Origin: a virus
Lineage: Duplodnaviria; Caudoviricetes
IMG/VR virus record: IMGVR_UViG_3300005985_000001
Span: 1 to 64,000 of that record
Reading direction: 5' to 3' (one strand)
Length of the DNA stretch: 64,000 nt
Shown here: one piece after another, positions 2,055 to 62,100 of the stretch
Layout: each line of letters opens with the position of its first letter
Position numbering within the stretch: the first letter of the stretch is position 1
Position numbers and translations under genes: made by a program
Notes under the pieces: generated by a model
Told to the model about the DNA's origin: nothing
Seen by the model: the letters and a program-made list of their open reading frames with translations, nothing else
Database searches by the model: none

Positions 2055-2504
2055 TCATTCTGCGGAACGTTCCGTTGATTCGCGTTCTAAGCGTCGTGAA
2101 AAACTAATGGCTCTCGTCGGGATGTAATCCGTGCCGGGTTCAAAGCCCTGCTCCTGAAGCTTCTGGTTGGCTTCTTTGGAGCGACGGCGATAGTCCTTAC
2201 CGTAGGCGCGGCGCTGTTGCACCTCAACCCAGGTCCAATATTTCTTCCAGATCTTCTTGGCTCTGCGCTCCAGATCCGGTGGACGCGGGACTTCCTGACG
2301 ATACATATACTTATAGGGTGCGCTGTTATAGCCATATACAGCACGGACCAGCGCCATCAGTTGATTGTCCTGCTGCACGAGAAGGTTATAGCGTTCACGG
2401 TTGGCAGCAGCGCGTTTGGTTAGCTCGGCACGAAACCAGCTCTCAAAATTTGGATCGGCGAAGTTGCGTTCGGATACTGCGGGCACATCGTAGTAGGTAT
2501 TCAT
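2055..2504 (-). CDS. Hypothetical protein
   Basis: 149 aa ORF, start overlaps upstream stop. Confidence 0.7.
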   Translation of the reverse strand: MNTYYDVPAVSERNFADPNFESWFRAELTKRAAANRERYNLLVQQDNQLMALVRAVYGYNSAPYKYMYRQEVPRPPDLERRAKKIWKKYWTWVEVQQRRAYGKDYRRRSKEANQKLQEQGFEPGTDYIPTRAISFSRRLERESTERSAE

Positions 2505-2873
2505 TTACGTATCTCAGCATAAACTAAGAGTAAGAGTAGTCCAACCAGAAACAGGATCAGTCCCACCAGGAACACGAAGAATGCTTCTTTCGTGGTAATC
2601 ACGAGAATATTGCTGGCGAGCACATGGTTCATCATGTCTTGGGGGTCCATCGGAACGTTCCGGCTATCGAATCGAGAGCTTGGTGATAATGAAGGCGATG
2701 AAGGTGACAATCGCAGCGAGGATGAACGCTTCGATGAACTTCCCGATCAAAGGTGGACGCTTGGGAATAGGCTTAGGCGTCTTCTTGGGCATCAACCAAT
2801 TCTTTCGGTGAAATACATTTGATTTCGGTGAGCCTGCCATCACGGAAGGTTGCTCGATACTCGTACCAGACAT
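2501..2873 (-). CDS. Two small predicted membrane proteins (2501-2710, 2664-2873)
   Basis: Hydrophobic stretches FFVFLVGLILFLVGLLLLLVY and FIEAFILAAIVTFIAFII; true starts uncertain. Confidence 0.45.
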
Positions 2874-3671: not shown

Positions 3672-4177
3672 ACCCGATCCTCTCCTGAATAATCTTGGAA
3701 GTGTTTCACATCAGCCTCGGTTAAAGCGTACCATTCACGTTCGACCTTGCGTTCCGCAAAAACAGCTTTGAAATGCTTTTCGAGTGCGTGCCGATCTGTC
3801 GTATAAATTACATGGGTGAAATCGAGTACTTCTGCGTGGGCTGTTTTGTATGATCTCAGTCTCTGCTTGAGATCATGTGTCTTACCCAACTTCCAAAGTC
3901 TGTTAGGCGCTTTTAGAAGATAGACGTAACCCTTAGCACTTTTGGGTTTTGCGGGCTGCCACAGGTTAATCGAAATTCTCAGGGAACAGATTACAAAAGC
4001 AGTCGAAGTCGTGACTGCGATAGCGAGTAAAAACATGGACCATTCATCAGTGTGTCCGAGAGCTTGGATATACCATTGGTAGATGCCCAAAAAACCAAGT
4101 GATAAAATCGCTAAAGGTGTCTTCGCTAACTCACGAATGTTATCGTAGATGTGAGTATTCTTCTTCTTTATGCCCAT
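3668..4177 (-). CDS. Membrane-anchored GIY-YIG (T5orf172/MUG113-like) nuclease-domain protein
   Basis: Two N-terminal hydrophobic helices, then GYVYLL...WKLGKT...RL..Y...LEK.F...F.ERKVEREWY. Confidence 0.75.
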   Translation of the reverse strand: MGIKKKNTHIYDNIRELAKTPLAILSLGFLGIYQWYIQALGHTDEWSMFLLAIAVTTSTAFVICSLRISINLWQPAKPKSAKGYVYLLKAPNRLWKLGKTHDLKQRLRSYKTAHAEVLDFTHVIYTTDRHALEKHFKAVFAERKVEREWYALTEADVKHFQDYSGEDRV

Positions 4178-5018
4178 TCGTTCTTTTTAACTCCTCAATG
4201 ACGTTATAAACAGTTGACTTTCCAACGCCGAGATGTGCTGCAATTTCCAATGGTTTCCCGTCAACAAGCAGTTCTGGATGCTCTTGGAAGAAGGCAATCG
4301 TCATCTCTCTTGCCATTGGTTGCTTCTTATGTCCAAGCGTGGAATTTGATGGAATGATTTCCATGCCCTGTATTCCATTGGAACTTCCATTGGAAGCTGC
4401 TGGAACTTGTTTGGAATCCTGAATAGACTTTCTGTATTTCCGAAATGCGGTTAAAACTGTCGCATCCCACTGCTTTGAGTCCTCGCGGTATTTTTCCTGT
4501 GCTTCTGTATTGGCTTTGGTCTGACTAAGGTGCATATGAACAAACATCTCACCCGCAAGTAGTGCGATCAATGGCGCACCAAAACCTAAGATAACGCCTA
4601 CGGCTGTAATCCAGACATCGCCTTGCGCCGAAAGCGCCCGGAGCACAGAGTTGATATTACTGATCAGCGCAACAGCAAAGACGACAATCAGCATAATCGT
4701 GACGACAGTACGATTGCCTCGAAGACGTGCATAGGTTGCGATAAAGATCGCCAAGTCAATGGCAACAAAAGCTGCCAGTGCCACCAGTTGACGCACCCAT
4801 TCTGCAACATGCTCCTGCTCGATTCCTGCATATGCTGTTGGAACGGTATGAACACCAGAAAGAAGTGCGGCACAGACAAACATAAAGATCACCACACTGC
4901 GCAGCCACCAGGGATATTCACTTGAAATATCCTCTGGCTTTATTGGTACACTGGCAGGATGCTGTTGATTGAACTCTTCTCGGAACTCGTCATAGTTCAT
5001 AGCGGAACGTTCCGTCAT
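4140..5018 (-). CDS. Multi-pass membrane protein with coiled coil and C-terminal HTH (DUF2637/SpdA-like architecture)
   Basis: About four hydrophobic segments, then PLEIAAHLGVGKSTVYNVI HTH. Confidence 0.7.
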   Translation of the reverse strand: MTERSAMNYDEFREEFNQQHPASVPIKPEDISSEYPWWLRSVVIFMFVCAALLSGVHTVPTAYAGIEQEHVAEWVRQLVALAAFVAIDLAIFIATYARLRGNRTVVTIMLIVVFAVALISNINSVLRALSAQGDVWITAVGVILGFGAPLIALLAGEMFVHMHLSQTKANTEAQEKYREDSKQWDATVLTAFRKYRKSIQDSKQVPAASNGSSNGIQGMEIIPSNSTLGHKKQPMAREMTIAFFQEHPELLVDGKPLEIAAHLGVGKSTVYNVIEELKRTNGHKEEEYSHLR

Positions 5019-6139: not shown

Positions 6140-6378
6140 ACCGTTCGCAGCTTTCTCCCAACAATCCGCAGGCTGTTGGGGTAATTGACGTTGAAGTAAA
6201 CAATTTCCCGATGTTTCATGATATTGAGCGTATGCTGCACTGTTGCGGCATTACAGCCAAAGTGTTCCGCGATCTCTTTCCGAGTCGGTGCTTGTCGGTG
6301 TTCGTTCCAGTAGTCCAGAATAAAATCGCGCATCGCTGGAATTCGCGCTTCAATACGCTGTTGAGCTTTATTCAACAT
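6136..6378 (-). CDS. LexA-type DNA-binding-domain-only protein
   Basis: RDFILDYWNEHRQAPTRKEIAEHFGC...TVQHTL..M...I matches the LexA N-terminal wHTH; no peptidase domain. Confidence 0.75.
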   Translation of the reverse strand: MLNKAQQRIEARIPAMRDFILDYWNEHRQAPTRKEIAEHFGCNAATVQHTLNIMKHREIVYFNVNYPNSLRIVGRKLRTV

Positions 6379-6577
6379 CCACGACCTTCAGGTGTCCACG
6401 CCCGTTCCGTTCCAGAAAGCCGATACGGATCAACTTCCGAATGTGGAAGTGGATGGTACTCGGACTTTTATTAAACTCATTCGCAATGGTGCGAATCGTC
6501 GGTGCATAGCCGTATTGCTGATCAAAATCGACAATGAACTGGAGAATGCGTTTGCGCATCTCGGTGAGTCTGGGCAT
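6368..6577 (-). CDS. LexA-type DNA-binding-domain-only protein
   Basis: RILQFIVDFDQQYGYAPTIRTIANEF.KSPSTIHFHIRKLIRIGFLER; no peptidase domain. Confidence 0.8.
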   Translation of the reverse strand: MPRLTEMRKRILQFIVDFDQQYGYAPTIRTIANEFNKSPSTIHFHIRKLIRIGFLERNGRGHLKVVDVE

Positions 6578-6625
6578 TGAAATTCTCCTTCATAACCCGC
6601 GTGGTGGGCGGGTTTCGGCAGTGGT

Positions 6626-8458: not shown

Positions 8459-10150
8459 AGGCGATTCCTATTAAACGCAGACCAAAAGTATCTGTGTTCC
8501 ATTCTTCTTTCAGTGTCGGGATACAGGGTGTTGAATCGACCTGTACCAGATAGTTCTCGATGTCTGACCACTCCAGCCCTGAGAAGTATTCCCAGAGTTC
8601 ATCGGCGCTGGCATTTCGGTAGATGTCTTCGTACTCTTCGTCGTAGGTACATTCAGTCACACCGTCCATGAGAAAGTAGCCCATACTCCCGACGCTGGCG
8701 AGATAGCCTTCGATGATGACGACAACGCGGATTTGCCAGATCCCCGAAATCGCCTGAAATTGCAGCACTTTATTCATCTTCGGAACGTTCCGCTAGATGC
8801 ACCCAAATGCGACTGGTCTTGATGGCTTGTGGGAAAATTGTTTCCAATTGCTTTCGGTTAATTATCGGCACATGTACCAGGAATTCATCCAGATCCTCGT
8901 AGCTGATTTCATTGCGGAGATAGTCGATCAGGAAGGCTTCATCCTGCATCGCAGCATTGACATACTGCTCGATCATGTCCGGGCTTGCGGTTTCGCCCAA
9001 TGTTCGGACGGTATAGGCTTCCGCCACCAGTTCGGTGGGAATGCGATAGAGTTCATCTTCGATGTAGAATTCCATATAGTTCATCTGAGGATCGCCATCC
9101 CGAAGTGCCTCAATCGACAGATAGCCATCCAGGATGCGATCTTTTGAAAGGAGTTGATTGAAGCACAGTTGCAGCGCCTGTCCGATAGTTTGCGCGTCTT
9201 CCTCAGTTGGCATCAGGATACTGCCGATCATCAGGTTCACGGTCATCGCCAGAGCTTCTGTGCTATGTTTCAGAAGCTGTTCTGCGGCTTCCTCGCCCTG
9301 CGCCGTGAGTTCAAATTGTCCCGGCGAGACTTCCAGCATATCGCCGTCATCGATGGCTTGCTGCATCCGTTCTTCGAAATCTTCGGGCAAATCATCATAA
9401 TCAGAATTGATAGACAAGAGCTTTGGTCTCCTCAATGAATTGAACGAATTTAGGATTGGGTTCCCAGTTGGGATTGACGCCCAGTTCCAGGATGGCGGCG
9501 GCTTCGCCTCGTGTCAGGTCCTTCGCAGAAGTCATCCTGCGAGAGAACCAGAGCTTAAGCACCAGCAGCCGCTCATCCCGTGAAGTCGTGTGCGCGTCCA
9601 GGAATCGTGCAACGGCGATGGACTGTTTCATTGTCGCCGGAACGTTCCGAGACTCATGGGATCGCGCTAAAGAAAGTAGCTGGTCGAGCACCGGTCGTTC
9701 TCCTTCATCGCCCTGTGGTGGAGGGCTGCACAGATGTACTTATTCTACTACGAATTCGTACATTTTGCAACGGTTCGATGTTCAGAGTTGCTTAGGTAGC
9801 TTAGTTTCCACCTTCTATGAACTCAGAGACGATAGAAGGTGTTGATGTCTTCAAACATTGGAATCCTCTCGTTTGACGAGTTGATACTTCGAAAGTAATG
9901 CGTTCCCGAATTCTGCCATCAGTGCCTTGAAGCGGATGTCGATGTCCTGACCACCAAAAGGATGTAGATAACTTGCATAAAGACAATCACTAGCGATGCC
10001 ATGAAATTTCAACCAGTCCAAACCAAACTTCTCTGTGCCTTCACTCATTACACGGTAGAAAATCTCACCGGCGTTGTAACGCGATTCCCGATCCCAGGTA
10101 TCCCAGGCTGATTCGACTGGCGTATCTTCAGAGTCGCGATAGATAGACAT
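8439..10150 (-). CDS. Four hypothetical proteins (8439-8777, 8770-9435, 9401-9691, 9851-10150)
   Basis: Tandem ORFs; 9401-9691 has hairpin, SD and promoter motif upstream. Confidence 0.6.
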
Positions 10151-11652: not shown

Positions 11653-11696
11653 GTGTATTCTCCTTCGGTGAGTTCCGGTGGTGACGGAACGTTCCG

Positions 11697-12029: not shown

Positions 12030-13188
12030 CACTCGTCTCCAGGATAACCGGCGCTTTCTTAAATACAATCGAAGAGACTGCACCTTCTGGAACAGGTTCT
12101 GGGACAAAGGGCACTTCAGGCAGTGAAGTAGGCTGCTCAGGACGTTTATAGAGGTCTTCATAGGCAAACCATCCGTGAGGGTGTGTATAGTTGCCGAGCA
12201 TATCGATCACCTGCGAAGCCCCTGCGCCATTGGCGATCATGGTAGACGCTTTCTTGGTGGCAAAGTCCTTGAAGATGGGATCGCTGTCGAAGAGGTCATT
12301 CGGAGAAGGATGCATATGCCGGTCGCCGAATTGGTCGGGTACAGGCACATCCCGATCCAATTGATCTCGCATGTTGTCGGTGAGCTTGTTTCGTCCAAGT
12401 GCCTTGAGGAGATACTGCTCCAGTGAAGAATACTTGGGGGGTTTTGCGTCTTCGCCCACAGAGGTACTGCCGGAGAAGTGATTTTGTTGTTTGCGCTTTG
12501 GCTTGTTCTTCGCCGCAGGAGCGCCCGCTTGCGGGCCGACTGCATCTTTAAGATCTGTTGTATTCTCTGAAGTGCTCTTTGTAGTGTTCTCTGTATTAGA
12601 TTCGGTATTTAATACCAGGGGGGTGGTATCAAATACGGAGGGGGGTGTATTTGGTACCAGGGGGTCTGTATCTGATACCAGGGGTGTCGGCTGAAATCCA
12701 TCGATTTTGAAGATATTGATGATCGTTTGATAGTCTTTTTCAACTACTTCAATGCCGACAAACTCCATCCAGATCTTGATGCGTCGTTCAAATTCCGGCC
12801 AGTTCACTCGCAACCAAGGCGTCTTCAATCCAACCTCACCATGTAATTCATAGAAGATCAAGGAACGTTCCGTCAAACGTTCAAGCGAACGACGCACGGT
12901 TTCATTTTTAACACGGGTTTCTGTAAACCAGTCCTTGTGATTCTTGGTAATCCAGTAATGCCCGTCCTTTTGACGACGAAGACGGCTTTCCCCTGTTTCC
13001 TGATTAGGTCCATGCCAGTACATAATCTGCGAAAACACCAGCCCATCAATCAGATTGCCATCATTGATGTCGATATAGGGCAATGCAAGATAAACACCTC
13101 GACGTGCCTCAAACTGAGCGCGTACCCACTGACGGCCAAACTCGTTGTCGATGGCTTGTTCAACTGTAATCACTCGAGTGCCCTCCAA
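12019..13188 (-). CDS. Phage replication initiator / replisome organiser
   Basis: N-terminal wHTH (SQIMYW...W..K....WF.E......TVRRSL..L), low-complexity linker with DNA repeats, located upstream of dnaB. Confidence 0.75.
   Translation of the reverse strand: MEGTRVITVEQAIDNEFGRQWVRAQFEARRGVYLALPYIDINDGNLIDGLVFSQIMYWHGPNQETGESRLRRQKDGHYWITKNHKDWFTETRVKNETVRRSLERLTERSLIFYELHGEVGLKTPWLRVNWPEFERRIKIWMEFVGIEVVEKDYQTIINIFKIDGFQPTPLVSDTDPLVPNTPPSVFDTTPLVLNTESNTENTTKSTSENTTDLKDAVGPQAGAPAAKNKPKRKQQNHFSGSTSVGEDAKPPKYSSLEQYLLKALGRNKLTDNMRDQLDRDVPVPDQFGDRHMHPSPNDLFDSDPIFKDFATKKASTMIANGAGASQVIDMLGNYTHPHGWFAYEDLYKRPEQPTSLPEVPFVPEPVPEGAVSSIVFKKAPVILETSDAH
12613..12686. repeat. Iteron-like direct repeats (TACCAGGGG x3 plus one variant) inside the initiator gene; probable origin
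   Basis: TACCAGGGG near 12614, 12655 and 12676 and TACGGAGGGGG near 12634, about 21 bp apart; lambda-O-like arrangement. Confidence 0.6.
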
Positions 13189-14535: not shown

Positions 14536-15626
14536 CGCAGCACTGGCTCTAAACCGAATTGCTTCGTTAACCAGGCATTCCCCATGCCCGCCTGCAAAAC
14601 TTCTCCCGAATCCTTGTACTCTTTTGGAGGTGCGATGATGCGTCCCCGATTGAGAATCTGATGTAACTTCTCCGCCTTCTTTAGCCCAGGCTCGTCATTG
14701 TCCCGAACAATGTAGAGCATCGGAATGTGCTCGAAGATCTTCGGCAGCATTGGGTTCAGTTCTGCTGAGAGAGTCACGCCAGCGGCGGGCCAGCCCGCGT
14801 CCATCATCGCCAATGTATCCATCTCTTTGGGTTCGGCATGAATCAACAAAAACGGCTGACTGCGCTTGAGGATCTTGCCTTCCTGCGCTTCCGCGACCAT
14901 CTGCACATTGAAGACTCGCGCGACACTCCCTTCTTCTCGGCGATACTTGGGACCACCACAGTGCTTCAGGATGTCCTCATTGGTAATCGTGCGTCCAAGT
15001 TTCTTGAACAAATCATCAATCACCTCAAAGTAGCGGGGATGATCCAGAAAGGTATCGAGGAAGTGCTGGTCATCACGGCGATAGTTGATCTCACGGACTT
15101 CACCGTTGAAGATGTTGGGCAGTGCATAACGCGGTGCTTTGAACCAGACAACTTCGCCAGTGGTCATGGTGTAGGCGGTTGGGAAATCCGTTTTCACGCC
15201 GAGCATGGACGTGTGTGCTGTAGGATCAGTGATCTGGCGCTGCTGATAGTAAGGCAAGCCCAGATCCAGATGCCTGAAATTTGCTTCTACGATACTCATC
15301 GGAATCGAGGGCTTGCGCGGTTCCACCGGCTGCTGAGGACGTGCCGGACGGGGTTCCAGCGGAACGTTCCGTGAAAGCGCCTCAATCGCCTCTTTGATAC
15401 TAAGGTTGTCATACTCCATAACAAAATCGATAATCGTGCCATGCCATTCACAGCCGTAGCAGTGGGCATGGTCTGCCCAGACAGTGAAACTCGGCCGATC
15501 ATCACTGTGAAATGGACAGCAGTACTGGGTGTACTGGGTCGAACGAATTCCCTCTCCAAGATAGGGAGATACGTAGTCTCTCAGGTCATAGGATGACCGG
15601 AGTTGGTCCAGATCGATATTGGACAT
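14532..15626 (-). CDS. dnaG: DnaG-like primase (CHC2 zinc finger + TOPRIM)
   Basis: CCPFHSDDRPSF...HCYGC; AEPKEMDTL; VRDNDEPG. Confidence 0.88.
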   Translation of the reverse strand: MSNIDLDQLRSSYDLRDYVSPYLGEGIRSTQYTQYCCPFHSDDRPSFTVWADHAHCYGCEWHGTIIDFVMEYDNLSIKEAIEALSRNVPLEPRPARPQQPVEPRKPSIPMSIVEANFRHLDLGLPYYQQRQITDPTAHTSMLGVKTDFPTAYTMTTGEVVWFKAPRYALPNIFNGEVREINYRRDDQHFLDTFLDHPRYFEVIDDLFKKLGRTITNEDILKHCGGPKYRREEGSVARVFNVQMVAEAQEGKILKRSQPFLLIHAEPKEMDTLAMMDAGWPAAGVTLSAELNPMLPKIFEHIPMLYIVRDNDEPGLKKAEKLHQILNRGRIIAPPKEYKDSGEVLQAGMGNAWLTKQFGLEPVLR

Positions 15627-18487: not shown

Positions 18488-19340
18488 TCACTTCGGGAGC
18501 AGAGTGGCACCAATAGGCGCAGGCAGCATCGATGATACCCGGTGCGCCGTTTTTTGGATACTTTCTGATCGAGCGGCATTGCCAAGCATGATCGCCATCC
18601 ATCAGGTCAATCGGTGGTTTGGTTTCGCCGTTGAGATACTGCATCTGGTACATCACTTCGCCGACGAGTGTTTCACGGTTGATGTGTTCTGGCGTATTCA
18701 GCGGATGTGCCCATGAGTAGCCATGCTCAGAGACCAGCGAGTAGCCGCCAGACACCGGCACCAAGTCCCAGATCTCCATCATACTCATCGGATCGGTGAA
18801 ATCACGGTAAGCGGGGGTGTTCAAAATGACTAGATGCCCAGCGCAGTTGTGCCCGATCATGTCCATATAGGCAAGTAGCTGGAACACATCCCCGATACGG
18901 GGCTGCGGGAATTTGTCCTTATACGTAGGCAGCCGGTGCTTGACTTCGATAGCGTGACTTTGTTTCGGAGTTCTCACAAAACCATCATAGCGCCCTTGCA
19001 GCGGAAGTGTAGGATGCTGAAGAACACGCTCGACAGCACCAACCCAATCTCCGTAACGCGCTCCAAAGAGAATGCTTTCCTGAAAGGCTTCTGCTGAACG
19101 CACGCCCAACTGCATCCTGTGCATCAGTGAGACATTTGCCCGTTTGGTCAGATGTTCAAAGACCGGCGTTCTGCCGGAACGCTCCGCAGCCGCTTTCAAT
19201 GGGCAGTCCATTAAGGATGATGCATGAACCAGCCCTTCGGTATAGTTATGATCTTCGGTGAACGACATACGTTCACCGCCGTCATCGAGATAGAGTAAAT
19301 AGTCGTAATACTGTTTTCGCAGTCGTTCTGAAAACTGCAT
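18438..19340 (-). CDS. Cas4/RecB-like PD-(D/E)xK exonuclease
   Basis: HASSLMDCP; GRYDG; AIEVKH; QLLAY; C-terminal Cys cluster. Confidence 0.8.
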   Translation of the reverse strand: MQFSERLRKQYYDYLLYLDDGGERMSFTEDHNYTEGLVHASSLMDCPLKAAAERSGRTPVFEHLTKRANVSLMHRMQLGVRSAEAFQESILFGARYGDWVGAVERVLQHPTLPLQGRYDGFVRTPKQSHAIEVKHRLPTYKDKFPQPRIGDVFQLLAYMDMIGHNCAGHLVILNTPAYRDFTDPMSMMEIWDLVPVSGGYSLVSEHGYSWAHPLNTPEHINRETLVGEVMYQMQYLNGETKPPIDLMDGDHAWQCRSIRKYPKNGAPGIIDAACAYWCHSAPEVIENGALYTEEGLQIAF

Positions 19341-21903: not shown

Positions 21904-22574
21904 CAGTCCTCGTCTCCCTCGGAACGTTCCGTCGCTTGGTAAATCTTTTCATAGGTAAACAACCGAAGCACTTCTGGGTCACATTCATCGACGTTCTTAA
22001 TCTCGTTCCAGAACGCATCTCCGGTATCCACATCTTCATAAAGGGCAGCTTCACCTTCAGGGTCTTCCTGCATCGCCTTGATGAATTCATAGGCATCATC
22101 CGCAGTCTCGGCTTCGACTAGGGTATACCCGTAGATCGTCCATTCGTGCCGCACGTTAAAGATGGGCATCGTCAACTCCATCCAAATCAGATTCCAATTC
22201 GACAATTTCATCTACGCCGCGATAGTGCATATCGTGCATGTCCAGTGAATCCAGCAAGTTTAGGTACTCGCCATTGACTGCCATATCATCGACCAGTTCA
22301 TGCGCATCATCTACGCTCTCTGCTTCCACGTCGATCTCGCCGTAGACGGTGTAAGTGAAGGTCACTTTGTAGTAGTTCATTTGGTCTCCTCACTGATAAA
22401 TGTACTTCCTGCGAACTGTGTTTCTATCGGAACTGGATTGACCAATGCAGCACGGATGTTTTCTTCAGTCATCCAATCCAGCGCATCGTAGGCATCATCC
22501 AGAGTTTCTGCCTCAATCAAAAGATTGCTGGTCAAGCTAAAGTCAATTGAAAACCGATATTTAGGCATCTTCAT
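21903..22574 (-). CDS. Three tandem paralogous small proteins with an [VI]EAE[ST]xDDA motif (DpnD/PcfM-like)
   Basis: TLVEAETADDAY, IDVEAESVDDAH, LLIEAETLDDAY; ORFs 21903-~22168, 22156-22380, 22377-22574. Confidence 0.65.
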
Positions 22575-32494: not shown

Positions 32495-32520
32495 TCCTGA
32501 CCTTTCTTCAGAACGTTCCG

Positions 32521-36518: not shown

Positions 36519-36539
36519 GTTGACGGAACGTTCCGTAAG

Positions 36540-39920: not shown

Positions 39921-40035
39921 GTTACCTCCGTTACATTTCTTCCCTCATCCTATGGTCTAACCCCCCCCCTAAATACACATTTCTTCCCGTGAGGTGTTAC
40001 CGAGGTTACAGGACTGCGGAACGTTCCGCGCATGG

Positions 40036-44128: not shown

Positions 44129-44184
44129 TGAGCCAAATGTTCTAAACAGGGACACCACCCCTGTCGAAGGAGAATACATCCAAT

Positions 44185-46331: not shown

Positions 46332-47704
46332 ATTGGAACGAATTCTGGTCAAGACCTTTTACGCTCCTCAAAGGCGAAGAAGTCTATGGCGAGGGTGTTG
46401 AATTCTCGAATGGATTTTGCGCCATTCTGTTCCACGAAGATCGTCCAAATTTAAGAGCTTATCTCGATTTTACAGCAATGTGGGATGAAGAAGTTCAGGA
46501 TAAAAGCGATATTACGTTCATAGGGTGGATTGAAGAATGAAACAACGAATCGCAGGACTTATTTTTGACCTGAAACAGAATTTCTATCGCGGGCTGTACT
46601 TCAACTGCTGGGCGATCATCAACCGGCTCAGTGATGTTGCGGAATGGGCAGGGCGGCGAACCGCAACGGCGCAGAAGCGTGAAGATGGCTACGAAGGCGG
46701 AGAACGTTACCCCTGGCGACCGAGATATTAGATGAACTTTATCCAGCTTCGGAATGCACTCGAATTTATTGAAGCGGAGTTACGAGAAGAAATTCTTGAC
46801 CACTTTTGGTCTGGGAAATTGAAGTCTGTGACTTTTCACTGCGATCTGGGTGATTTAGAACATCAGTTAGATTCAGTTGAGCCAAATTCGTATAAGACAC
46901 TTCATCGCTATGTTACTTACGAATTGCACGATTGAGGACCTATGGCACATCTTCTCCGAAGTCTTCGACGCCTGTTTCCCCGATGTGTCGGTTCTCGCGG
47001 TTTTCCAATTATCGCCTGGGAGATTCCTTTTAGTGGCGGACGCACACTCGTTGCGTATTGTGCTGGCGGATTACGCTTCCGAGACAGAATTACACTTACG
47101 CAAAATCGCCTGGATTCATCAGATACTCGATAGTTTGGAGGAGTAGATATGTCAGATTTTTCAGAAGCAGTAACATCAACCAGTTTTGGCGTCGGCTGCA
47201 TAGTCGGTATCGCTATTACACAGTTGGACTTCGAATGAATCTCATTTCATGGCAGGATAAGGCATGGATGTGGTTTGTCTGGAAATTGCCCCGCACCTTG
47301 ATTTATTGGGCAGTCAATTTATGCCTGGGCAAGAATACTACGTGGATTTTACGCCCGCAGACAGTCAATGACGGAACGTTCCGTGAGGGATTAGGATCGA
47401 TTTTGCCCTAATCCCTCTTGACAATTCAAAATAAGGCATTACGATTAAGTCATCCTCTTAATGTAACACCTCAACTAAAGGCATTCACCACATGCCCTTT
47501 GATCCAACCTTCGACAACTGCGCGGATTTTTTCCCAAAAGGTTGGCTCTGTCCCGGCTGTAAGACCGTTCATGCGCCGTTTGTGAGCACATGTGACTGCC
47601 AGAAGCCGAAAACCCAGGTGGTAAAGTTCCACACCATGATCGCCAATCCCTTTTTCACCTTTGTGTTTGAGGACTCCGGCGAAGTCCCTGCGTTTGCACT
47701 CTAA
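46328..47704 (+). CDS. Accessory small ORFs between terL and portal (46328-46540, 46537-46731, 46732-46935, ~46931-47146, ~47236-47411, 47492-47704)
   Basis: Tandem rightward ORFs with coupled junctions. Confidence 0.5.
47418..47445 (+). promoter_or_regulatory. Sigma70-like promoter upstream of the tRNA cluster
   Basis: TTGACA-N16-TACGAT in an AT-rich intergenic region. Confidence 0.55.
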
Positions 47705-48062: not shown

Positions 48063-49733
48063 ATGGCGCAGAACGAATTCTCCAATCCGGTTCCGGTGAA
48101 TCCGCTGGGGTCGCTAAACTCGCTGACGGGCAATCGTTTCGAGTCTACGCCTACAGTCGCTTCGATTTATGCGCTGACAGAGGACACGCTTCCCCCTGCT
48201 TTTCCACTGGCTCAATGGCAGGATCAGGCTGCACTCTACTATGCATACTGGGCTTGGTTCAATGGGGATTACATCAACCAGACCAAGCAGGGAGCCAATG
48301 GGGAAACGCTGTATAAGTTCCCCCTGCGCATTAACACCCTCCGCGATATTGTCCGTAAGCACGCCAGTGTCCTGTTTGGCGAAGCCCCGGACGGTCCCCG
48401 TCCGTTGGTCGAAACCTCGATCACGGCACGCAACGGTCTGACCGGCGAAGCTGCAACCGATGAGCAAAAGAAGTTTGCCAAGCTCTGCGAAGCGATTGTG
48501 AATGAGGTCTGGTTCCAATCCAACGGTCGAGCGATCCAGCAGGAAGGCGGCGAACTTACCCAGTTTCTCGGCGGTCATGTCTACCAACTCAGTTTTCAGC
48601 CCTGGCGCAAGGATTTACTCGTGCCAGTGGTGCTGCGAAGCTGGAAAGCCGACATGTTCCTGCCGATCTGGGAGAACGGCGATTACTGGAATCTCTCCGA
48701 AGCCTACATCGTCTGCCGGATTGAAGCGGCTCAAGCCAAGAATCAGTATGGCATCGAAACGACTGCTGTGTTCTGCACTTATGTAGAACACTGGACGCGC
48801 AAGAAGTATTCGATCTTCATCGACGGCACACCCGTAACTCTTGTCGCTGATGGACGATCCGTAACCTACAAAGATGTTGAGAACCCCTTTGGGATTGTGC
48901 CGTTCTACTACATCCCGCACCTGCGCGAAGGTGGATTTTTCGGCAGCAGCCATGTCCCGGATCTGGTCGGTCTGATCCAGGAATACAACTACTCGATGGC
49001 GAACCTCGGCGATGCGATTGCTGATAATATCGACCGCGACATCTACATTCGCAACTCTTCGCAGCGCACCAAAGTTGAGCTTCCCAATAGCAAAGAAGCC
49101 GTCAATCTGGGGATGCAGAATCCCTCGAATAACCACCCTCCAGATGCCTTTGCCATTGATCCCCCGCAGCTAGCGCCGGGTCTCACCAATCATCCGCAGC
49201 AGATTTACAACCAGATTCGCCGCACTGCATTTCTCCCAGCGGTTGCTGAAGGCGAAGATGAAGGTTCCCAGCGTTCCGGCGTGACGCTGGACATCCGTTT
49301 CTGGCCTGCCACTGCGCACGCCAAAGCGGAACGTTCCTTCTGGGAAACCGGACTGAACCTGATTGCCAAAGGCATCCTGACCATCATCCATACCAAGCGG
49401 CTCTGGAGTAAATACATCCCTGAGCTTCAGCAGGTGAAGGATAACTTCATGACCCAACTGAGTATTTCTCAGGATTGGTTCCCGCAGATCCCTCGTGACC
49501 GCGCCAGTGAAGTCAACGAAATTCTGGCTCGTGTCGGACAGTTCGGGATGAGTCCGGCAACCGCGCTGGACAAGTTTGGGGACATCGAAGACAAGGAAGC
49601 TGAACTCGAGGAAATCCGCGAATGGGCTGCTTTCCTGTCATCTCTGAAGACACCGGCTCAGGAACCTGGCAAGACCACTCCCCTCAATTCAAACCGTTTC
49701 GCTGAAAACAGCGATGCGATTGATAACAATTAG
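48063..49733 (+). CDS. Portal protein
   Basis: 556 aa between terL and scaffold; ENPFGIVPFYYIPH, GSSHVPDLVGLIQEYN, SG.TL, SPP1-like portal pattern. Confidence 0.85.
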   Translation: MAQNEFSNPVPVNPLGSLNSLTGNRFESTPTVASIYALTEDTLPPAFPLAQWQDQAALYYAYWAWFNGDYINQTKQGANGETLYKFPLRINTLRDIVRKHASVLFGEAPDGPRPLVETSITARNGLTGEAATDEQKKFAKLCEAIVNEVWFQSNGRAIQQEGGELTQFLGGHVYQLSFQPWRKDLLVPVVLRSWKADMFLPIWENGDYWNLSEAYIVCRIEAAQAKNQYGIETTAVFCTYVEHWTRKKYSIFIDGTPVTLVADGRSVTYKDVENPFGIVPFYYIPHLREGGFFGSSHVPDLVGLIQEYNYSMANLGDAIADNIDRDIYIRNSSQRTKVELPNSKEAVNLGMQNPSNNHPPDAFAIDPPQLAPGLTNHPQQIYNQIRRTAFLPAVAEGEDEGSQRSGVTLDIRFWPATAHAKAERSFWETGLNLIAKGILTIIHTKRLWSKYIPELQQVKDNFMTQLSISQDWFPQIPRDRASEVNEILARVGQFGMSPATALDKFGDIEDKEAELEEIREWAAFLSSLKTPAQEPGKTTPLNSNRFAENSDAIDNN

Positions 49734-51946: not shown

Positions 51947-51962
51947 ACGGAACGTTCCGTCG

Positions 51963-53143: not shown

Positions 53144-54218
53144 TGTGATTGCGATCTTTCCCGGCAAGGAACGCACACCGGGAGGCTGTGAGATTTACCG
53201 CACCACCATGCCCTACTATCATCTTCAGAAGAAACACCCTGACTGGAAAGCGGACTGGGTATTTGGTGAAACCCTCTGGACGGACATCATGACCCGAGGA
53301 CCCATTGCCGCCAAGCAGTTTGCCGATCAGTATGACATCTTTGTGTTTCCCCGAAACTACGTCAAAGATGAAACAGGATTGGATAACTACCGTGAAATCA
53401 CTGATCTTTTGCATCATCTGGGTAAGCGCCTGATCTACGAAGTGGATGATGATCTGACCAATCAGGAACGTCAGGTCATTAACGGTGATGCAGTGAGTGT
53501 TGCCAAGCTCTGCGATGCTATCACGGTTACGACCAAAGCCCTCGGCGACCTGATGAAAGCCAGAACCGGCAAGCCCGCCTACGTGCTGCCGAATATGTTT
53601 GCCCCAGAAACCTGGCTGGAGCCTTTTGCCGGAACGTTCCGTTATGCCGACAAGATCACGATTGGTTTGACCGGCTCTCCCACACACGAACGCGATTGGG
53701 AAGTGCTCAAAGATGTGCTGCCGAAAGTCGTTCAGGATAATGGTGTGCATCTGGTGCTCATGGGCTATCACCCAGAGTATCTTCAGGATTTACCAAATAC
53801 TTCCTATATTCCAGGTTTGCAGTATAATAGATATGCGCAAGTCATCCAGACTTGCGACATTATCCTCGCTCCACTCAATCACGAAGTTTTCAATCTTAGT
53901 AAATCCCCGATAAAAGTCCTTGAAGGACAAGCTGCCCGACGCTTCATTGACAAGCGTCCCGCAGGAGCCGCCTGTATTGCCACTGATCATCCGGTCTATC
54001 GACTTGCCATAAAGCCTGAAAAAACCGGATTGCTCGTTGAGCATACGCCGAGCGCCTGGCAGGAAGCTCTGGATCGCATGATCTATGATGAGCGCCTGCG
54101 GCATCAGCTTCAATTCAACGGTCATGAATGGGTGCAGAAGCACCACGACATCTCCAAGACCGCAACCCTCTGGCGCAACGCCTACGAAAGCATTCTCCGC
54201 AAACCCATCCCCGCTTAA
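53136..54218 (+). CDS. GT-B (family 4-like) glycosyltransferase
   Basis: IYEVDDDL, CDAITVTTKALGD, VLPN, IGLTGSPTHERDW, DIILAPL...FN.SKSPIKVLE, TGLLV. Confidence 0.88.
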   Translation: MPNVIAIFPGKERTPGGCEIYRTTMPYYHLQKKHPDWKADWVFGETLWTDIMTRGPIAAKQFADQYDIFVFPRNYVKDETGLDNYREITDLLHHLGKRLIYEVDDDLTNQERQVINGDAVSVAKLCDAITVTTKALGDLMKARTGKPAYVLPNMFAPETWLEPFAGTFRYADKITIGLTGSPTHERDWEVLKDVLPKVVQDNGVHLVLMGYHPEYLQDLPNTSYIPGLQYNRYAQVIQTCDIILAPLNHEVFNLSKSPIKVLEGQAARRFIDKRPAGAACIATDHPVYRLAIKPEKTGLLVEHTPSAWQEALDRMIYDERLRHQLQFNGHEWVQKHHDISKTATLWRNAYESILRKPIPA

Positions 54219-56111: not shown

Positions 56112-59100
56112 GACTTCGGCGCAACATGGCGTTCAATGCCAACCTCGATGTAGACAATCAGGATCACTACCGGCACTTGATGAATCGCCTGGATCGTGAA
56201 GGCATCAAGTACGGGATGAATGATGTCGATCTGGGCTTTGGGCGGAACCTCACGGCGATCACCATCAACCAGCGCATCCGCGATAAGGACGTGCAAAGCC
56301 ACCTCTTCTATGGTCCCGAAGGTGGCTTATATGTCTCTAACCCGAACAACACGGGTGGCGTGCGTCCGATCCTGTCCACCATTCGGTTCAATAAAGATGA
56401 ATCTATCTCGCCTTCCAATCCTCTGATGTCGCCGGTGGATCGTGTGATTAACATGATCCAGAATCCAAATTGGGAAGACCCAAAGACCAAGCGAGTTTCG
56501 CAGTATGGCTTGTCTACGCTGGCACAGAAACAGGGAGCAGATAACGTCTCCTGGCAGCGTCTCGAAGCCCAACCCGGTCTGGATCGCCTGTTTCGCAACG
56601 GCGTTCAACTGAGCGGTGAAAAGTATAGTTATAACGATAAGATTGACCAGCTTAATCGCGCAACCGGAAGTGATTATGTCAACTACGCGAGAGTAGGCGC
56701 AGCATATCGGGCGAAAGATTACGAGGCGGTGATTCCCACCAACAATGCTGGTGGAATGCTCATTTCAAAACTGAAGGAAGCAAAACTTTTCACCGGTAAA
56801 GTTTCGGATGCCGTCATTGGCAGAAACATCTACGAGCCATCCCCGGAGCCTTTCTACTTTGAAGGTCAGGCAGGTCCGAATCAGTCGGTCGTGCTTCGTG
56901 GCGCATTTGATCTTTTCTCGGAAATCCCTGAAGGCGCAGCATTTACGGCTGGTTTAGGGGCTGCCAATCGCATCAGTCGTACAGTAACACTCCCAAGAGG
57001 GACGACCTATGATCCCGATACAGGTGGGTTGACGCTGGCAAATGGCACCGCCTTAAGTGCGGGAACCTATTTTGGCGGGAAGCCGCCCGGCAGTTATAGT
57101 GACTATACCCGCCTGGGTGGAAAACGTGAATATAACGACATCTTTGGCGTTTCAATGGGAAGTTATCACTCGACGCTGATCGAGAATATTGTTCCCGAAC
57201 TCAATGATCGTGGGCAGTTCACGGGTCGAGCAACCTTTGATGCGCGTGCCATTACCAAAGACGTAGCCATAAAATCATGGATAAAAGCCGAAGGGATGGA
57301 CATTCACCGTTCGGCAATGCCTTTTGACGAGGAAACAGATCGGCATGTCGATACCTGGATGCGCTTGCCCGATCTCAAGAAACTGCCTGCACTGGCTTTA
57401 AAAGCCCTTGCCGCAGATATGAATAATACAGAAGCTTTTGGGCAATGGTTCGGTGAACAGGCGTCTGCGCGTGGGATGTCAGCGGACTGGATTGCTCAGA
57501 ATTTCCAGAATGGGCAGGTCAGTAAAGAAGCCACGCCACTGGTAACAGAGGCAGCCATTCAGCGTTTATTAAGCAAGGCAACGTACAATCCACAAAATCC
57601 GCGTCGGAATGTTCCATTAGGATCAACTGAATACGAAGCCTTTCGTAATGTGACCTTTATCCATCAGGGACAGTCCTACAATGTACTTGGAAATGTACAA
57701 GCCCGCGATGATGGAACCTATCTTGCGGAGACTTTCCATACACCCCGGATTGTCACCGACTACGCGACTAATGTGCGTACTGAACATGTGCGCGATACGA
57801 TGCGAATTAAGCCGGGAACGCTGTCCATCATGGCACAGAATAACCCGGAACTCTTTGATTCGCTGACATCCATTGCTCAGGCAACCCGGAAGAACAACCG
57901 CGCTTTTGCCATGACCTCGGCATTTCGCGCCAATAGTTCATCCGAACAACGTCAGGCAGTGCAGGATATATTTGGTATCGACAAACTGGATATTGCTCAG
58001 GTCGGACGTTTACGAGAAGAATATCTGTCGAATAACACGGATGTCAGTGATAGTGGCATGTTCCGTCACATTCTCAGTGGATTGGCTGAGCAGTATGGCG
58101 AGCAAGCACTGGAACTGAAGACTCCACAGGGGTCGATGATCCTACCCAATGCCCGAACGATTCGGGCAGGATTGCGACGAAACAATGATAACCCGGAATT
58201 AATCAACAACTGGTCAAAAAGTGCAGCGGGTCTGATTACTGCACTAGGGGATGATTCTATTTCTCCCGATATTATTCAGAACATGGCCAATGACACTTAT
58301 GCCAGAATGGAAGAACATTCTGGCAAGCGGGGTGTTCAGCAAAAAGCCACGAGTATTGAACTCGGGCGGTTAGGCGGTTTTGCGCGTTCAACGCCTGGTA
58401 TTCCCGATAACATGGCAATTACCTCATTGGCAACCATTCAAAAACGGACGGGTATCGAGAATCCTGATGAGATACGCCGGATGGCAGCGCAAGGTGACCT
58501 TGTGCTCTCTGGCTGGCGCTATCCCTCTACGCACGCGAAAGACTTTGCTGCATCGGTTCGACTGGGCATTTATGAAGATCAACCGCAGTGGTACAAAGAT
58601 CGCTATCTAAATCCAGGAAGGGATGTTTACACCTCTCCTGAAATCATGCGGGCGTTGCGCGGAGACAATGATGGCGACCGCTTTCAAGCTGTCCTAAATC
58701 GTTTTCGAACGCAAGCAGCCGAATTCGGGAAATCCCTTACTGCACTCACGCCAAGACAGGTCGTTCAACGTGCAGCCAATGCGTTTGAGAGCGAACGCAC
58801 CAAGTTCATCAAAACGATGGCGGAACGTTCCGGGATGGATCTGGCGAACACACCTTTGTCTGCGTTCTCATCTTTCTCCTATTCCCAGAAACAAATGCGC
58901 GAAGATTTTCTCACAGAGGAGCGAGAAGCCAAGAGTCTGATTGGCATCAACACCAACACCTTTAACCGCAGTATGGGGATGGCAGCGCGTTCTGGTGCAG
59001 AGCAGCTTTTTGGAGTCGATAGTCCGCTGACGGACCGGATTGCAGTGGCGTTTTCGAGCATTGAGAATATCACCGGCGCATCAGCACTCGACCGCGCTGC

Positions 59101-62100
59101 TAACAAGGACACTGCTCTGGAATACTTGCAGCAGGTGGGACAGGACAAGGGGCTGTATCGCACAGGTGCACGATTCTGGAACCGCTCAACCGGCAAAACT
59201 CTGACCGGACCAGAATCTCAATTCCAGGAAATTTTTAAACAACTTTCTAGTATTGGTTCTAACCTGGAAGGTGAGCCGGTGCTGGGTATTAGCCCAGATC
59301 AGGAATACCGGCAAAAACTAGCGCCTGCGATTGCGACGGCAATGCTCACGCGCGACGAGATGAAACGCCTGGCGGATTCTGGCGAACTGGATCAGCGCAT
59401 CAACCAGATGGCAGATATGCTTACTCAGCGCCGTGCCACTGGAGAAGACATCAGCACCCAGCTTTTGCCACTGACCGGCGCTGCAAAATTTGCGGAGTGG
59501 GGTGAAGGCAACGGTTCTGGATTGGGTTCACAGTCCAGTATTGGACAGTGGATTACTGGACAGATTGCCAATAACTATCGCTTGTCACAACGCAAAGATA
59601 AAAGTGGCAATAAGATGGTTGACGCCAACGGGAAACCCGTCATTATGGGTGAGTTCCCGACCGACTGGGGCGCACAGTATGAGAATGCAGGCAAGATTGC
59701 CCAGAGCATACAAGAATTTAATACCAATCTCGGCAAGCGGCGAGGGAATAATACACTGGAACAGGCGGTTCGCTCAGTAGCCGGTGGCGGCGAACGTCTG
59801 AAAAACTTCCTCGGTGGTATGTTCCCTGGACTGGCGCAGGCTACACAGCGATTCGCTGTTGCACCGGTTGATGATCCAAGTTTGTACAATCCAGGCGCTT
59901 ACCTGACCGCCTCACAGTGGACCAGTGGCACCGGAGTAGACGATGAACTGCTGCGTCTGGTGAATTTGAACACCACCTCAGCGGAACGTTCCGGCGTAAT
60001 TGCCGAACTGATGAAGTCCGGTGCATTCCAGGAGTATCGTCCCTACAGCGGTCCTGCCAATAACGCGGATAAAGTCGGGACGCGCATGGAGAATGTGCTG
60101 ACCGGCAAACTGGCAGCCCCTGAGAACCAACAGATTCTTATGGCGAATGCTCGGCGTCGTATGGGCAACTCTCGGGCGGACTTCGGGATGCGCGACAGTG
60201 CAGGCAACCTGGTAGTCGGTGACATCAAGACCAAGAGCCGCACGGGGCTGATGAGTGACCTTCTGGGTCCGTCTCTGCGTGGCGACATCATGGGTCAGGT
60301 CTCCAACTACATCACCGGTACTCGTATCGACGGCGGCGAACGTCAGACCGGCGATTACGGCGTGGTCGTAGGCGGGATTCGTCTTAGCGACAACCCGAAC
60401 ATGCCGGAATCTGAAGTCGCGGCTGGGTTCGAGCAGGCGCACGATCTGGCGATGCAGATGTACAGTAACAGCCAGATGCCGACTTCATGGGCAAATGCAG
60501 GCTGGACGCAGGAACGATGGGAGTCTCATCGTCAAGCCTCGATGCAGGCCATGCAGGACATTTACGCCGCTTCGGGGATGAAAGTGGCTGCGCGGGTTGT
60601 GACCGGTGAAGAAGCAGAACAGTTCCTCAATGCCCGTCAGGGCGACATCTACAATCTGAAGTCGATTCGTCCTGAGCATCGTGCTGCGGACATGGCGGGT
60701 CGTGCGCAGCAAATCATGGCGCTGCGTGGTGGCGGCAATATCAGTGGTTCTGGAGTAGGCTCTCCGCCCCCTCCAAACATGCCTGGCGCACCTCCGGCTC
60801 CACCTTCGGGCGACGATGGCTATGTTCCGTCCAGTGCCAGTGGAAGCGGCGGCTCGGGTGGCGGCGGCTCAGTGGTCAACAATAACACTGTCTACCGGAT
60901 GTCCAACCCACGCATCACATCCAAGCAGATTGCCGAAGCAGAGATCGCACTGGAACATCTTGGCGAAGCCGCGAAGACCTTTGCAACCGGATCTAAAGAA
61001 GCCCGCGAAGAGATGCTCAAGCACTACGATGCTTTGAAGACTGTCTCTTCATACCTGAGTGACGTGGAGCGGGCACAGCGTTCGCCGGACGGCTTCAATA
61101 CCAACAATCCTAACTATCTTCTGCTTCAGCAGCGATTGGGCAGCGGGCGTGCAGGTGGCTCGGCGTTTGGCACCATCAACAATGCCGTTTATGATCCTGC
61201 ATTGAGCAATGCGGCTTATGAAGCCCAGCTTGCCAATATGCGAGACACCGGCGAAGAGCCGCCGCAATCTCGGCTCCAGCGCATGATGCGCGGCGGGCAG
61301 GATCTCGCTGAACGTATCATCAAAACGCAGGGCTTGTTCCATGCAAAGCTGGCGTTCAATATGTTTGCAGGCTCGGCGATTGGCGCAGCCGATAACTGGC
61401 AGGATCAGCAAGCTGCACAGGGAATGATGCTGGCACAAGCCGGTCAGTTGACGTTCAATCAACTGATGGGCAGTCAATTCGGAACCATGCAGCGTCGTAA
61501 CATCGCCCTTCAGGAAGGCGGGCTTGCCTATGGGCAACAGGTCTACAGCGCCTATGCGCCGTTGATCAACTTCGCAGCCGGTCCCGACACTGCGAAAGGT
61601 CCGCTGGGCGCAATGGCAGGGATTGGCGTGCCTGCGTTTGGCGTTGCGGCGGCTGCGACGACACTTACTGGCAGTCCTCTCTTTGGTGCTGTAGCGGGTG
61701 GTGTCACAGCCGGTATCGGCACGCTTGGCTATATGTCATCGAATGCCGTAAACTATCAGGCAGTCGGCGCATTTAATCAGCAGCGCAATGCCGGGATGGG
61801 CTTACAGGCAATGTTCCAGAATACAGCCGGAGCAGCCGGGGCTTTCTGGAATGATCTGGGGCGCGGGTTGGGTCTTGTTTCCGACGAAGACTACCAGCGG
61901 TATCTGGATGCGCCTCAGTTCAACGACCTGATTCAACGTTATTCACGCGGCGAAGTTGGGCGTCAGGAAGCAATTGCTCAAGCCGAAGCCATGCGTTTCA
62001 ATGGTGGCGACCTGATGGCAGGTGGCTTGGAGGCCTGGGTGCAGTCCCAGACTCGCGCAGGTGCATCTCGTGAAACGGCATTGAGCAACTACAGCTACTG

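Follow-up and report, generated by a model that had tools for sequence, protein, structure and literature searches.

A spacer-free 12-bp palindrome iterated across the genome of a metagenomic phage, its private variants in related phages and a candidate LexA-type reader

The IMG/VR virus record IMGVR_UViG_3300005985_000001 (83,741 bp; G000 in the comparisons below), the first 64 kb of which make up the window analysed here, contains 28 exact copies of a 12-bp word, CGGAACGTTCCG. The word is a trait of the phage lineage with variants private to single phages, and it reflects neither base composition nor any of the host genomes sampled. It is enriched, has diversified within the lineage and is biased towards gene boundaries, and the comparison of orthologous sites indicates that purifying selection on the DNA keeps it at particular places. 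On balance, the word probably serves as the binding site of a phage-encoded homodimeric protein reading double-stranded DNA. A conserved pair of small winged-helix proteins related to the DNA-binding domain of LexA provides the candidates for this reader.

In the window, 22 exact copies were counted against 0.01 expected from dinucleotide shuffles. Six further matches differ from the word by one mismatch and one by two mismatches, and the total of 29 matches with at most two mismatches compares with 2.1 expected. No other 12-mer is as frequent in the genome, and the full record has no copy of the reversed control word. All 12 positions are invariant and no consensus is seen outside them; five copies lengthen to ACGGAACGTTCCGT. 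In coding DNA, 18 copies are present against a mean of 0.40 and a maximum of 3 in 500 synonymous-codon shuffles, in which codons were permuted within each gene so that every protein sequence and the codon usage were preserved. All three reading frames are used, the word being read as ERS in 13 cases, as GTF in 3 and as RNVP in 2. With 28 copies against 0.01 genome-wide and 18 against 0.40 in genes, neither composition nor coding can account for the enrichment. The preliminary description of this DNA, made from the letters alone, had reported 22 perfect and 6 near-perfect copies in the window, the three readings, five copies extending to a longer word and a series of copies at gene junctions. 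All of these hold on recounting, the junction positions included. Its suggestion that selection acts on the DNA, to be checked by an exact k-mer count against a codon-preserving shuffle, is borne out by that shuffle and by the conservation of orthologous sites.

The palindrome is perfect and has no spacer, its half-sites CGGAAC and GTTCCG abutting each other, and the private words of the relatives are likewise all perfect palindromes. The predicted RNA folding of the palindromes of the lineage is marginal (0 to -4.8 kcal/mol), and an RNA hairpin was rejected as the function of the word for this reason. Such weak RNA hairpins, combined with perfect palindromy, point to a two-fold symmetric reader of double-stranded DNA.

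Five copies of G000 have a copy at the orthologous place in relatives. In the GTF codons of the glycosyltransferase gene, the gap between the capsid and adaptor genes and the dnaB leader, the word is shared by three phages, G000 included; in the primase gene (RNVP codons) and in gene 9401-9691, it is shared by G000 and one relative. At these sites the 10-bp core is 100% identical (90% in one case), while the 60-nt flanks retain an identity of 17-28% in intergenic and 35-68% in coding DNA. The core has thus been kept while its flanks decayed, which indicates selection on single sites at the DNA level and not a mutational bias. Insertion of a 12-bp mobile unit was also considered and rejected, because the alignments of the orthologous proteins contain no indel at the primase and glycosyltransferase sites.

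The terminase, used as the query of a protein search, revealed 77 relatives, several of them on contigs of 76-87 kb. The TerL protein has no tblastn match in 50,697 GenBank phage genomes, and the lineage is therefore known from metagenomes only. Words were counted in pieces of the genomes of the relatives and in IMG/VR relatives, the length covered being given with each count in Table 1. Many of these phages, in which the preliminary description had proposed to look for the motif, bear either CGGAACGTTCCG or private variants of it. The identical 12-mer occurs in phages with GC contents of 41% and 51%, and its core in phages of 44-47% GC; close relatives carry differing words. L030, L021 and L046 represent weaker cases, and no iterated palindrome was found in the pieces of G004, L008 and L061 that were read.

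Table 1. Iterated words of G000 and its relatives, and recognition helices of the LexA-type proteins
Phage	TerL identity	GC	Word	Copies	Recognition helix
G000			CGGAACGTTCCG	28 in the full record	KSPSTIHFHIRKL
L005/L074 phage	65%	44%	GGAACGTTCC, outer base mostly A..T (MGGAACGTTCCK)	22 per 42 kb	KSPSTIQFHLKKL (L074), with the GGAACGTTCC core
L006/L088 phage (taken as one phage, two samples)	60%	46%	GGAACGTTCC	15 per 42 kb	KSLSTIHWHLCKL (L088), with the GGAACGTTCC core
L075	54% if the same phage as TerL P0006	41%	CGGAACGTTCCG, exact	6 per 21 kb
L087 (2.6-kb contig)			GGAATATTCC	4 per 2.6 kb, two flanking the winged-helix gene	KSPSTIHFHVEKL
L007	53%		CAGAATATTCTG	5 per 17 kb
G001	38%		AGAACCGGTTCT	17 per 54 kb, one of them 17 nt upstream of the ATG of the homologue; 10-bp core (GAACCGGTTC) 21 per 54 kb	NPNTAQGWLKAL
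G002	27%		CTCCAAGCTTGGAG	8 per 37 kb
G003	23%		TTTCGACGTCGAAA	6 per 28 kb; 10-bp core 8
L091			TTCYGCGCRGAA	9 per 10 kb	GMSTVNYHLLKL

The words of the closer relatives follow a GAA-N2-TTC architecture (GGAACGTTCC, AGAATATTCT), and a second architecture, T(T/C)C-N6-G(A/G)A, is seen in the distant relatives G003, L091, L030, L021 and L033 (for example TTCGACGTCGAA, TTCTGCGCAGAA, TCCAGCGCTGGA and TCCCCCGGGGGA). In G001, 18 of the 21 copies are located 7-126 nt upstream of a start codon, several of them just downstream of a -10-like hexamer, and the copies of G003 lie 10-15 nt 5' of the Shine-Dalgarno sequence (SD). The 14-16-bp word of G002 (L065/L066), CCTCCAAGCTTGGAGG, holds GGAGG and its complement (copies for example at 35605 and 36564), and in two cases this GGAGG is positioned to serve as SD for the gene that follows; the word could mask the ribosome-binding site in RNA there (-4.8 kcal/mol). 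Another repeated sequence of G001, CTGCGCAG, was discarded as a private word: its 11 copies have no flank consensus, lie in codons of a genome of 58% GC and are probably compositional.

The copies are not distributed evenly with respect to genes (Table 2). In 12 of the 28 copies a gene boundary is found no more than 15 nt from the centre, where 2.1 such copies would be expected (binomial p 4e-7); at a coding density of 92.8%, 2.0 copies should be fully intergenic, and 10 are. No two copies are closer to each other than 588 bp (P = 0.002 under random placement). Copies are found straight after stop codons (11685, 38026, 36524, 40017 and 47372), within the final codons of genes (2063, 8781, 21920 and 38683), touching or just inside starts (2651, 5003 and 51948) and at or within terminator hairpins (36524, 47372, 51948 and, outside the window, 83341). 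The last of these occupies the loop of the hairpin which separates the two convergent transcription blocks of the genome, and copies are present in the leftward and rightward blocks alike. The remaining copies lie deep in genes, including those of the primase, the clamp, the glycosyltransferase and the tape-measure protein. The possibility that the copies are classical operators at sigma-70-type promoters was rejected, the numbers of promoter-like sites being 15 against 18, 9 against 26 and 17 against 16 expected; the sole promoter near a copy is that of a tRNA gene.

Table 2. Coordinates of the palindrome copies and of the LexA-type proteins in the window (strand of genes in brackets)
Feature	Position	Strand	Context	Orthologous copy or match
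Exact copy	2063..2074		in the last codons of 2055-2504 (-), 9 nt 5' of the following gene's CACCAC hairpin and SD
Exact copy	2651..2662		intergenic; abuts ATG 2650 of gene 2501-2650 (-)
Exact copy	5003..5014		junction of genes 5015-5374 and 4140-5018 (-); codons 2-5 (TERS) if the start is ATG 5018
Exact copy	8781..8792		last codons of 8770-9417 (-); 3 nt 5' of ATG 8777 of the next gene
Exact copy	9638..9649		gene 9401-9691 (-), frame RNVP	L074 (8888)
Exact copy	11685..11696		right after TAA of 11697-12029 (-); 5' of the dnaB hairpin/SD leader	L074 (7127), L075 (7185)
Exact copy	15360..15371		primase gene 14532-15626 (-), frame RNVP	L074 (449)
Exact copy	21920..21931		last codons of 21903-22169 (-); abuts SD of gene 21646-21903
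Exact copy	23911..23922		beta-clamp gene 23214-24314 (-), frame GTF
Exact copy	26510..26521		gene 26190-26642 (-), frame ERS
Exact copy	27545..27556		gene 27435-27842 (-), frame ERS
Exact copy	34962..34973		gene 34681-34992 (-), close to its 5' end, frame ERS
Exact copy	36524..36535		intergenic, 4 nt past the stop of 36540-36965 (-); directly 5' of terminator hairpin 36518-36496
Exact copy	38026..38037		right after TGA of 38038-38190 (-)
Exact copy	38683..38694		last codons of 38678-38896 (-); 7 nt 5' of AAGGAG
Exact copy	40017..40028		intergenic, 7 nt past the stop of 40036-40245 (-)
Exact copy	41596..41607		gene 40793-41764 (-), frame ERS
Exact copy	47372..47383		intergenic; then a hairpin, then tRNA-Trp promoter TTGACA-16-TACGAT (47418-47445)
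Exact copy	51948..51959		between the capsid-gene terminator (51916-51937) and the adaptor-gene ATG 51963	L005 (18674), L006 (18983)
Exact copy	53630..53641		glycosyltransferase gene 53136-54218 (+), frame GTF	L005 (20365), L006 (20722)
Exact copy	58821..58832		tape-measure gene 56126-64375 (+), frame ERS
Exact copy	59982..59993		tape-measure gene 56126-64375 (+), frame ERS
One-mismatch copy AGGAACGTTCCG	12861..12872		DnaD/O-like initiator gene 12019-13173 (-); adjoins partial repeat GAACGTT
One-mismatch copy CGGAACGCTCCG	19175..19186
One-mismatch copy CGGAACGTTCTG	27366..27377
One-mismatch copy CGGAACATTCCG	29248..29259
One-mismatch copy CAGAACGTTCCG	32509..32520		right after the stop of gene 32521-32823 (-)
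One-mismatch copy CGGAACGTTCCT	49327..49338		portal gene
Candidate reader, 69-aa winged helix, LexA DNA-binding domain alone	6368..6577	-		PF01726, E 6e-12, above cut-off; best solved relative LexA 3k2z, E 8e-7
Second, divergent LexA-type winged helix, 80 aa	6136..6378	-		PF01726, E 5e-4 to 1e-4, below curated cut-off

The sole recognisable sequence-specific DNA-binding regulators of G000 are two LexA_DNA_bind proteins, the genes of which stand in tandem just downstream of recA. Each of them is a winged helix-turn-helix domain with nothing else, and the 69-aa protein lacks the S24 C-terminal domain responsible for autocleavage and dimerisation. Pfam scans of 97 early, 30 late and the larger structural proteins detected neither a DNA methyltransferase nor a repressor of the Cro/CI type (HTH_3). 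The ParB N-terminal domain PF02195 had no match at E 0.1 in the six frames of the whole genome, and control genomes were matched by the same domain. The homologue family of the 69-aa protein was obtained by an exhaustive search, a word-indexed search having returned just the protein itself. In the L005 and L006 phages, too, recA is followed by this pair, the paralogues being seen together in L074 and L088. The proteins of G000, L074 and L088 are only about 40% identical overall, yet the recognition helix is kept, and all three phages have a GGAA..TTCC core in their words. Where the word differs, as in G001 and L091, the recognition helix differs too. Its KSPSTVHFH type is common to many cellular LexA-like proteins. 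LexA of the Gram-positive type reads GAAC half-sites, and winged-helix domains can bind abutting inverted 5-bp units, as heat-shock factor does (nGAAnnTTCn). The two proteins were among the candidate binders named in the preliminary description and are the ones that stand out as recognisable specific regulators. That this pair reads the word is, in our estimation, a tentative but reasonable possibility.

A number of observations weigh against such an assignment. In G000, L074 and L088 the winged-helix gene has no copy nearer than 1 kb, and there is no sign of autoregulation. L075 has the identical 12-mer, and no homologue was detected in the 21-kb fragment read. The helix of L087 is the same as that of G000, but the centre of its word is TA instead of CG, so that the helix alone cannot specify all 12 bp. 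Helix-turn-helix dimers rarely read half-sites whose centres are as close as the 4-6 bp seen here, and to our knowledge the N-terminal domain of LexA has no dimer interface when the C-terminal domain is missing. LexA-like proteins of L078, L079 and L080, found by pattern in IMG/VR, and of L092 come without a palindrome array, and the domain family alone is therefore no predictor of an array. Besides, the majority of the copies (18 of 28) are intragenic, and the positions of copies and promoters do not match. The comparison of helix and word covers six phages only.

In the mechanism proposed here, the 69-residue LexA-domain protein, possibly together with its tandem paralogue, would place two recognition helices head to head on the abutting CGGAAC and GTTCCG. 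Bound sites dispersed over cistron and operon boundaries would act as genome-wide roadblocks or insulators, and the bound protein would halt or insulate transcription through long operons, for example in a lysogen. Alternatively, the bound array might be an address label on the phage's own DNA. As each phage has a private word, the pair of reader and word would be phage-specific. We infer protein binding at the sites, the identity of the reader and the effect of its binding from the distribution and the conservation of the word. The dimeric phage binder put forward in the preliminary description would accord with a palindrome specific to the phage lineage, with selection on the DNA and with the candidate pair; as the sites do not coincide with phage promoters, the silencing or roadblock role suggested there is plausible as a proposal. 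A wider version of this reading concerns the whole lineage, taken as uncultivated temperate siphoviruses with an RNA polymerase fused to the tape measure. Here each phage would combine a LexA-type protein devoid of its C-terminal domain with its own gapless palindrome of 10-14 bp, in 20-30 copies including copies in codons, the two co-diversifying as a determinant of immunity or self-recognition; this is conceivable but doubtful.

The closest known parallel is found in the Cluster O mycobacteriophages (Corndog and its relatives), which contain a 17-bp dyad repeat, TGTTCGGNNNCCGAACA (PMC4351075). As in the present case, about 30 invariant copies and a few with one mismatch are dispersed over a siphovirus genome of 70-84 kb (PMC4351075). 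They occupy short intergenic gaps, 5' ends of genes and gene interiors, most of them away from promoters; relatives share part of their positions, and none of the host genomes checked contains the word (the present word has at most 3 copies in each of the 401 Chloroflexota genomes sampled). The authors likewise inferred a dimeric binder, with the function unknown (PMC4351075). The Cluster O repeat differs in having arms of 7+3+7, unlike the 12 bp without a spacer, and in being one word in all five phages, whereas the word described here varies between the phages of its lineage; coding sequence harbours two thirds of the present copies, and the phage lineage is unrelated. Microbacterium phages of Cluster EG have an 18-bp inverted repeat, GATCAACCNNGGTTGATC (PMC7302621). 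Similarly to G001, G003 and some copies in G000, it is a short dyad repeat just upstream of starts which is kept in diverged DNA, but it is present in only 8-10 copies at one genome end, all of them intergenic and start-associated (PMC7302621).

The placement at boundaries and not at promoters, the lack of paired copies and the presence of the word in both blocks resemble the stoperators of Cluster A mycobacteriophages. Stoperators are bound by the phage repressor (L5 gp71), which blocks elongating RNA polymerase, and repressor and stoperator co-diversify among related phages. Like the copies studied here, they comprise some 30 dispersed sites across early and late operons, enriched at gene junctions. 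Cluster A stoperators are, however, asymmetric 13-14-mers, oriented with transcription, bound by a monomer and nearly all intergenic, whereas the present word is a perfect palindrome; their reader is a known immunity repressor and the reader here is a candidate. The analogy to L5 stoperators drawn in the preliminary description is thus retained at the level of function and dropped at the level of the site.

With the LexA/SOS system the phage shares the LexA_DNA_bind winged helix, a recognition helix resembling those of cellular LexA-like proteins and inverted GAAC/GTTC in the word. The Gram-positive SOS (Cheo) box is GAAC-N4-GTTC, with a half-site spacing of 4; here GAAC and GTTC abut (spacing 0), and in G001 they are 2 bp apart. 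LexA has an S24 domain, which the candidate reader lacks, and the sites here are not upstream of damage-inducible genes. KorB/OB of plasmid RK2, ParB/parS and Noc/NBS represent arrays of a dozen or more near-perfect palindromes of 13-16 bp, dispersed over one replicon and served by one dimeric global regulator or organiser. The present array resembles them, but no ParB N-terminal domain was found in this genome. The parS/Noc-like analogy of the preliminary description does not hold, given the six-frame search for ParB and the Pfam scans for methyltransferases reported above.

Three other explanations of the word were weighed. A cis role in DNA transactions, in place of gene regulation, is rather unlikely for the word, be it in loading or titrating the replication initiator, as a target of a phage nuclease or nickase, or as a recombination hot spot at which cassettes are swapped at gene boundaries. 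The phage does encode a full replication and recombination set (O/DnaD-like initiator, DnaB, primase, RecA/UvsX, Sak4-like protein and SSB) as well as nuclease genes (HNH-AP2, T5orf172/MUG113 and a nuclease-like segment in the tape measure), and a one-mismatch copy with a partial repeat lies inside the initiator gene; the origin of phage lambda is located in gene O. The early region is highly mosaic and its copies stand at gene boundaries, and in the Cluster O phages recombination between repeats appears to have produced insertions and deletions (PMC4351075). Yet no copy or half-site cluster marks an origin, the copies keeping their minimal distance of 588 bp, and an origin-like cluster of half-sites was rejected as CGGAAC occurs outside full sites 48 times against 40 expected with no dense window. 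Moreover, 12 bp is short for homologous exchange, which needs no palindrome, and orthologous genes on both sides of the orthologous copies show that these are not mosaic breakpoints. A host system that reads or writes the word as a mark (a methyltransferase target, a site for another host protein or a self tag) is distinctly unlikely, and so is a HIP1-like word inherited from the host. Every core is a classical 6-bp palindrome of the restriction type (AACGTT, ACCGGT, AAGCTT, GACGTC, AATATT), any methylation would have to be host-made as no methyltransferase was found in the phage, and the genome of the true host could still be rich in the word. However, among 401 genomes of Chloroflexota, the phylum to which the only genome-binned relative belongs, none has more than 3 copies of CGGAACGTTCCG, a result independent of one unpublished genome (G232). 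Together with the occurrence of the same word at 41-51% GC and of differing words in close relatives, this argues against a host word of the HIP1 type, which would be shared by unrelated replicons of one host clade, whereas the relatives have private words. The HIP1-like analogy of the preliminary description therefore finds no support, the word tracking the phage lineage without host-wide enrichment in the genomes sampled. Restriction targets are normally depleted in phages, whereas the word is enriched 2000-fold. Avoidance of the 6-bp cores outside the long word was inconsistent and was rejected (observed/expected: AACGTT 10/20, AAGCTT 1/7.5, ACCGGT 22/17, GACGTC 12/9). A scan of genome contigs yielded one Anaerolineae contig of a metagenome-assembled genome with 36% TerL identity, which has no palindrome array, and the ESM Atlas taxa for the beta clamp were uninformative on the host.

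It is very improbable that the word acts in RNA, as a signal for processing, pausing or translation at cistron junctions, or as a promoter or terminator for the polymerase fused to the tape measure. The bias towards boundaries, the several copies abutting leader hairpins, SD sequences or terminators and the GGAGG with its complement in the G002 word would agree with it, as would phage P23-45, in which a tape-measure-fused polymerase goes together with iterated private motifs serving as promoters and terminators (PMC10770324). A perfect palindrome is, however, needless in RNA except for folding, and the hairpins are marginal; it also gives a promoter no direction. P23-45 has asymmetric promoter motifs which do not extend beyond the pre-early region (PMC10770324), whereas the present word, far from being an oriented motif upstream of pre-early starts, is palindromic and genome-wide, occurring in both blocks and deep within long genes such as that of the tape measure. 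A promoter-leader role is better fitted by a separate oriented element (TTCGTAGTATAAT/CACCAC/AAGGAGA), which is described below.

If the word is indeed read by the LexA-type pair, abutting half-sites would represent a new DNA-binding mode of the LexA domain, and the pair would be the first named reader for the unexplained palindrome arrays of phages, those of Cluster O and Cluster EG included. Dispersed invariant dyad repeats have been known from a few phage clusters for more than 10 years, without a reader or a function. The gapless word, its extensive encoding in codons, its diversification from phage to phage with the sites staying in place and a concrete candidate reader are new here. The comparison adds purifying selection on single sites inside and between genes, and it presents the word as a fast-evolving, phage-private character. 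The candidate is a domain of 69 residues whose helix tracks the word in the six phages compared, and it is cheap to test. Confirmation would help to explain how long operons are silenced or insulated in large temperate phages, and the small DNA-binding proteins of this family, orthogonal to one another and each paired with a 12-bp operator, could serve as genetic parts.

The genome is complete and circularly assembled in IMG/VR, and its 123-bp direct terminal repeat is an assembly overlap and not a physical end. The gene of a 658-aa large serine recombinase (integrase) spans the record ends (window 1-1909 and genome 83551-83741), which indicates that the genome is circular or circularly permuted. 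The preliminary description spoke of a prophage genome; the record is a circular viral genome with a serine integrase, and not necessarily that of an integrated prophage. The leftward block extends from about 43.7 kb down to the integrase and contains about 97 mostly small genes, including those of RecA/UvsX-like, SSB, DnaB, primase, DnaD/O-like initiator, beta-clamp and AAA_24/Sak4-like proteins. The rightward block (44.2-83.1 kb) encodes the terminase, portal, capsid, adaptor, glycosyltransferase, tail tube, the 2749-aa tape-measure protein and tail proteins.

Around 20 genes are preceded by an oriented element, in which a short hairpin, its loop reading CACCAC and its stem covarying, is followed after 5-12 nt by AAGGAGA and the start codon (for example 11653-11684, 6578-6640, 19341-19410, 34614-34680, 40246-40310 and 44120-44184). 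A promoter-like sequence, TTCGTAGTATAAT, is conserved ahead of this hairpin at several genes. The palindrome copies at 2063 and 11685 are located immediately 5' of CACCAC hairpins; the half-site GTTCCG/CGGAAC is used again in the hairpin stem at 11685. It seems that the phage's own expression signal is this separate element and not the palindrome. Matches to sigma-70-like promoters are depleted at positions 20001-40000 of the window (9 against 26 +/- 5 in shuffles), and the run of small leftward genes there may depend on read-through or on a phage polymerase for its transcription.

The region 19340-19420 contains divergent promoter-like sites (TTTCCA-18-TATAAT on the minus strand and TGGACT-16-TATACT on the plus strand) and no exact copy of the palindrome. 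It parts gene 18438-19340 from 19417-19914, the lone plus-strand gene of the early block, and looks like a lysis-lysogeny switch region. The 165-aa product of gene 19417-19914, which has a CI-like position, had no Pfam match and no informative Atlas neighbour.

The tape-measure protein contains the sequence LRGDNDGDRF at residue 847, a polymerase signature of the DxDGD type, and its N-terminal region (240-1000) is homologous to the tape measure of G001. Both features fit a virion RNA polymerase fused to the tape measure, as in Thermus phage P23-45 (PMC10770324). The head-tail module includes a glycosyltransferase gene of the GT1 type (53136-54218), and nucleotidyl-transferase and GT2 genes are located at the end of the late block (genome 79631-83138), where relatives add methyltransferase and epimerase genes. 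These genes suggest glycosylation of the virion, which has been reported for some mycobacteriophages. Mobile elements were also noticed in the relatives: the terminases of P0010, P0014 and P0018 (TerL of 877-907 aa) contain inteins (PF14890), the DnaB of L088 (4441-7011, 856 aa) has a LAGLIDADG/Hom_end intein, and several relatives carry HNH/NUMOD4 homing-endonuclease genes in the early block.

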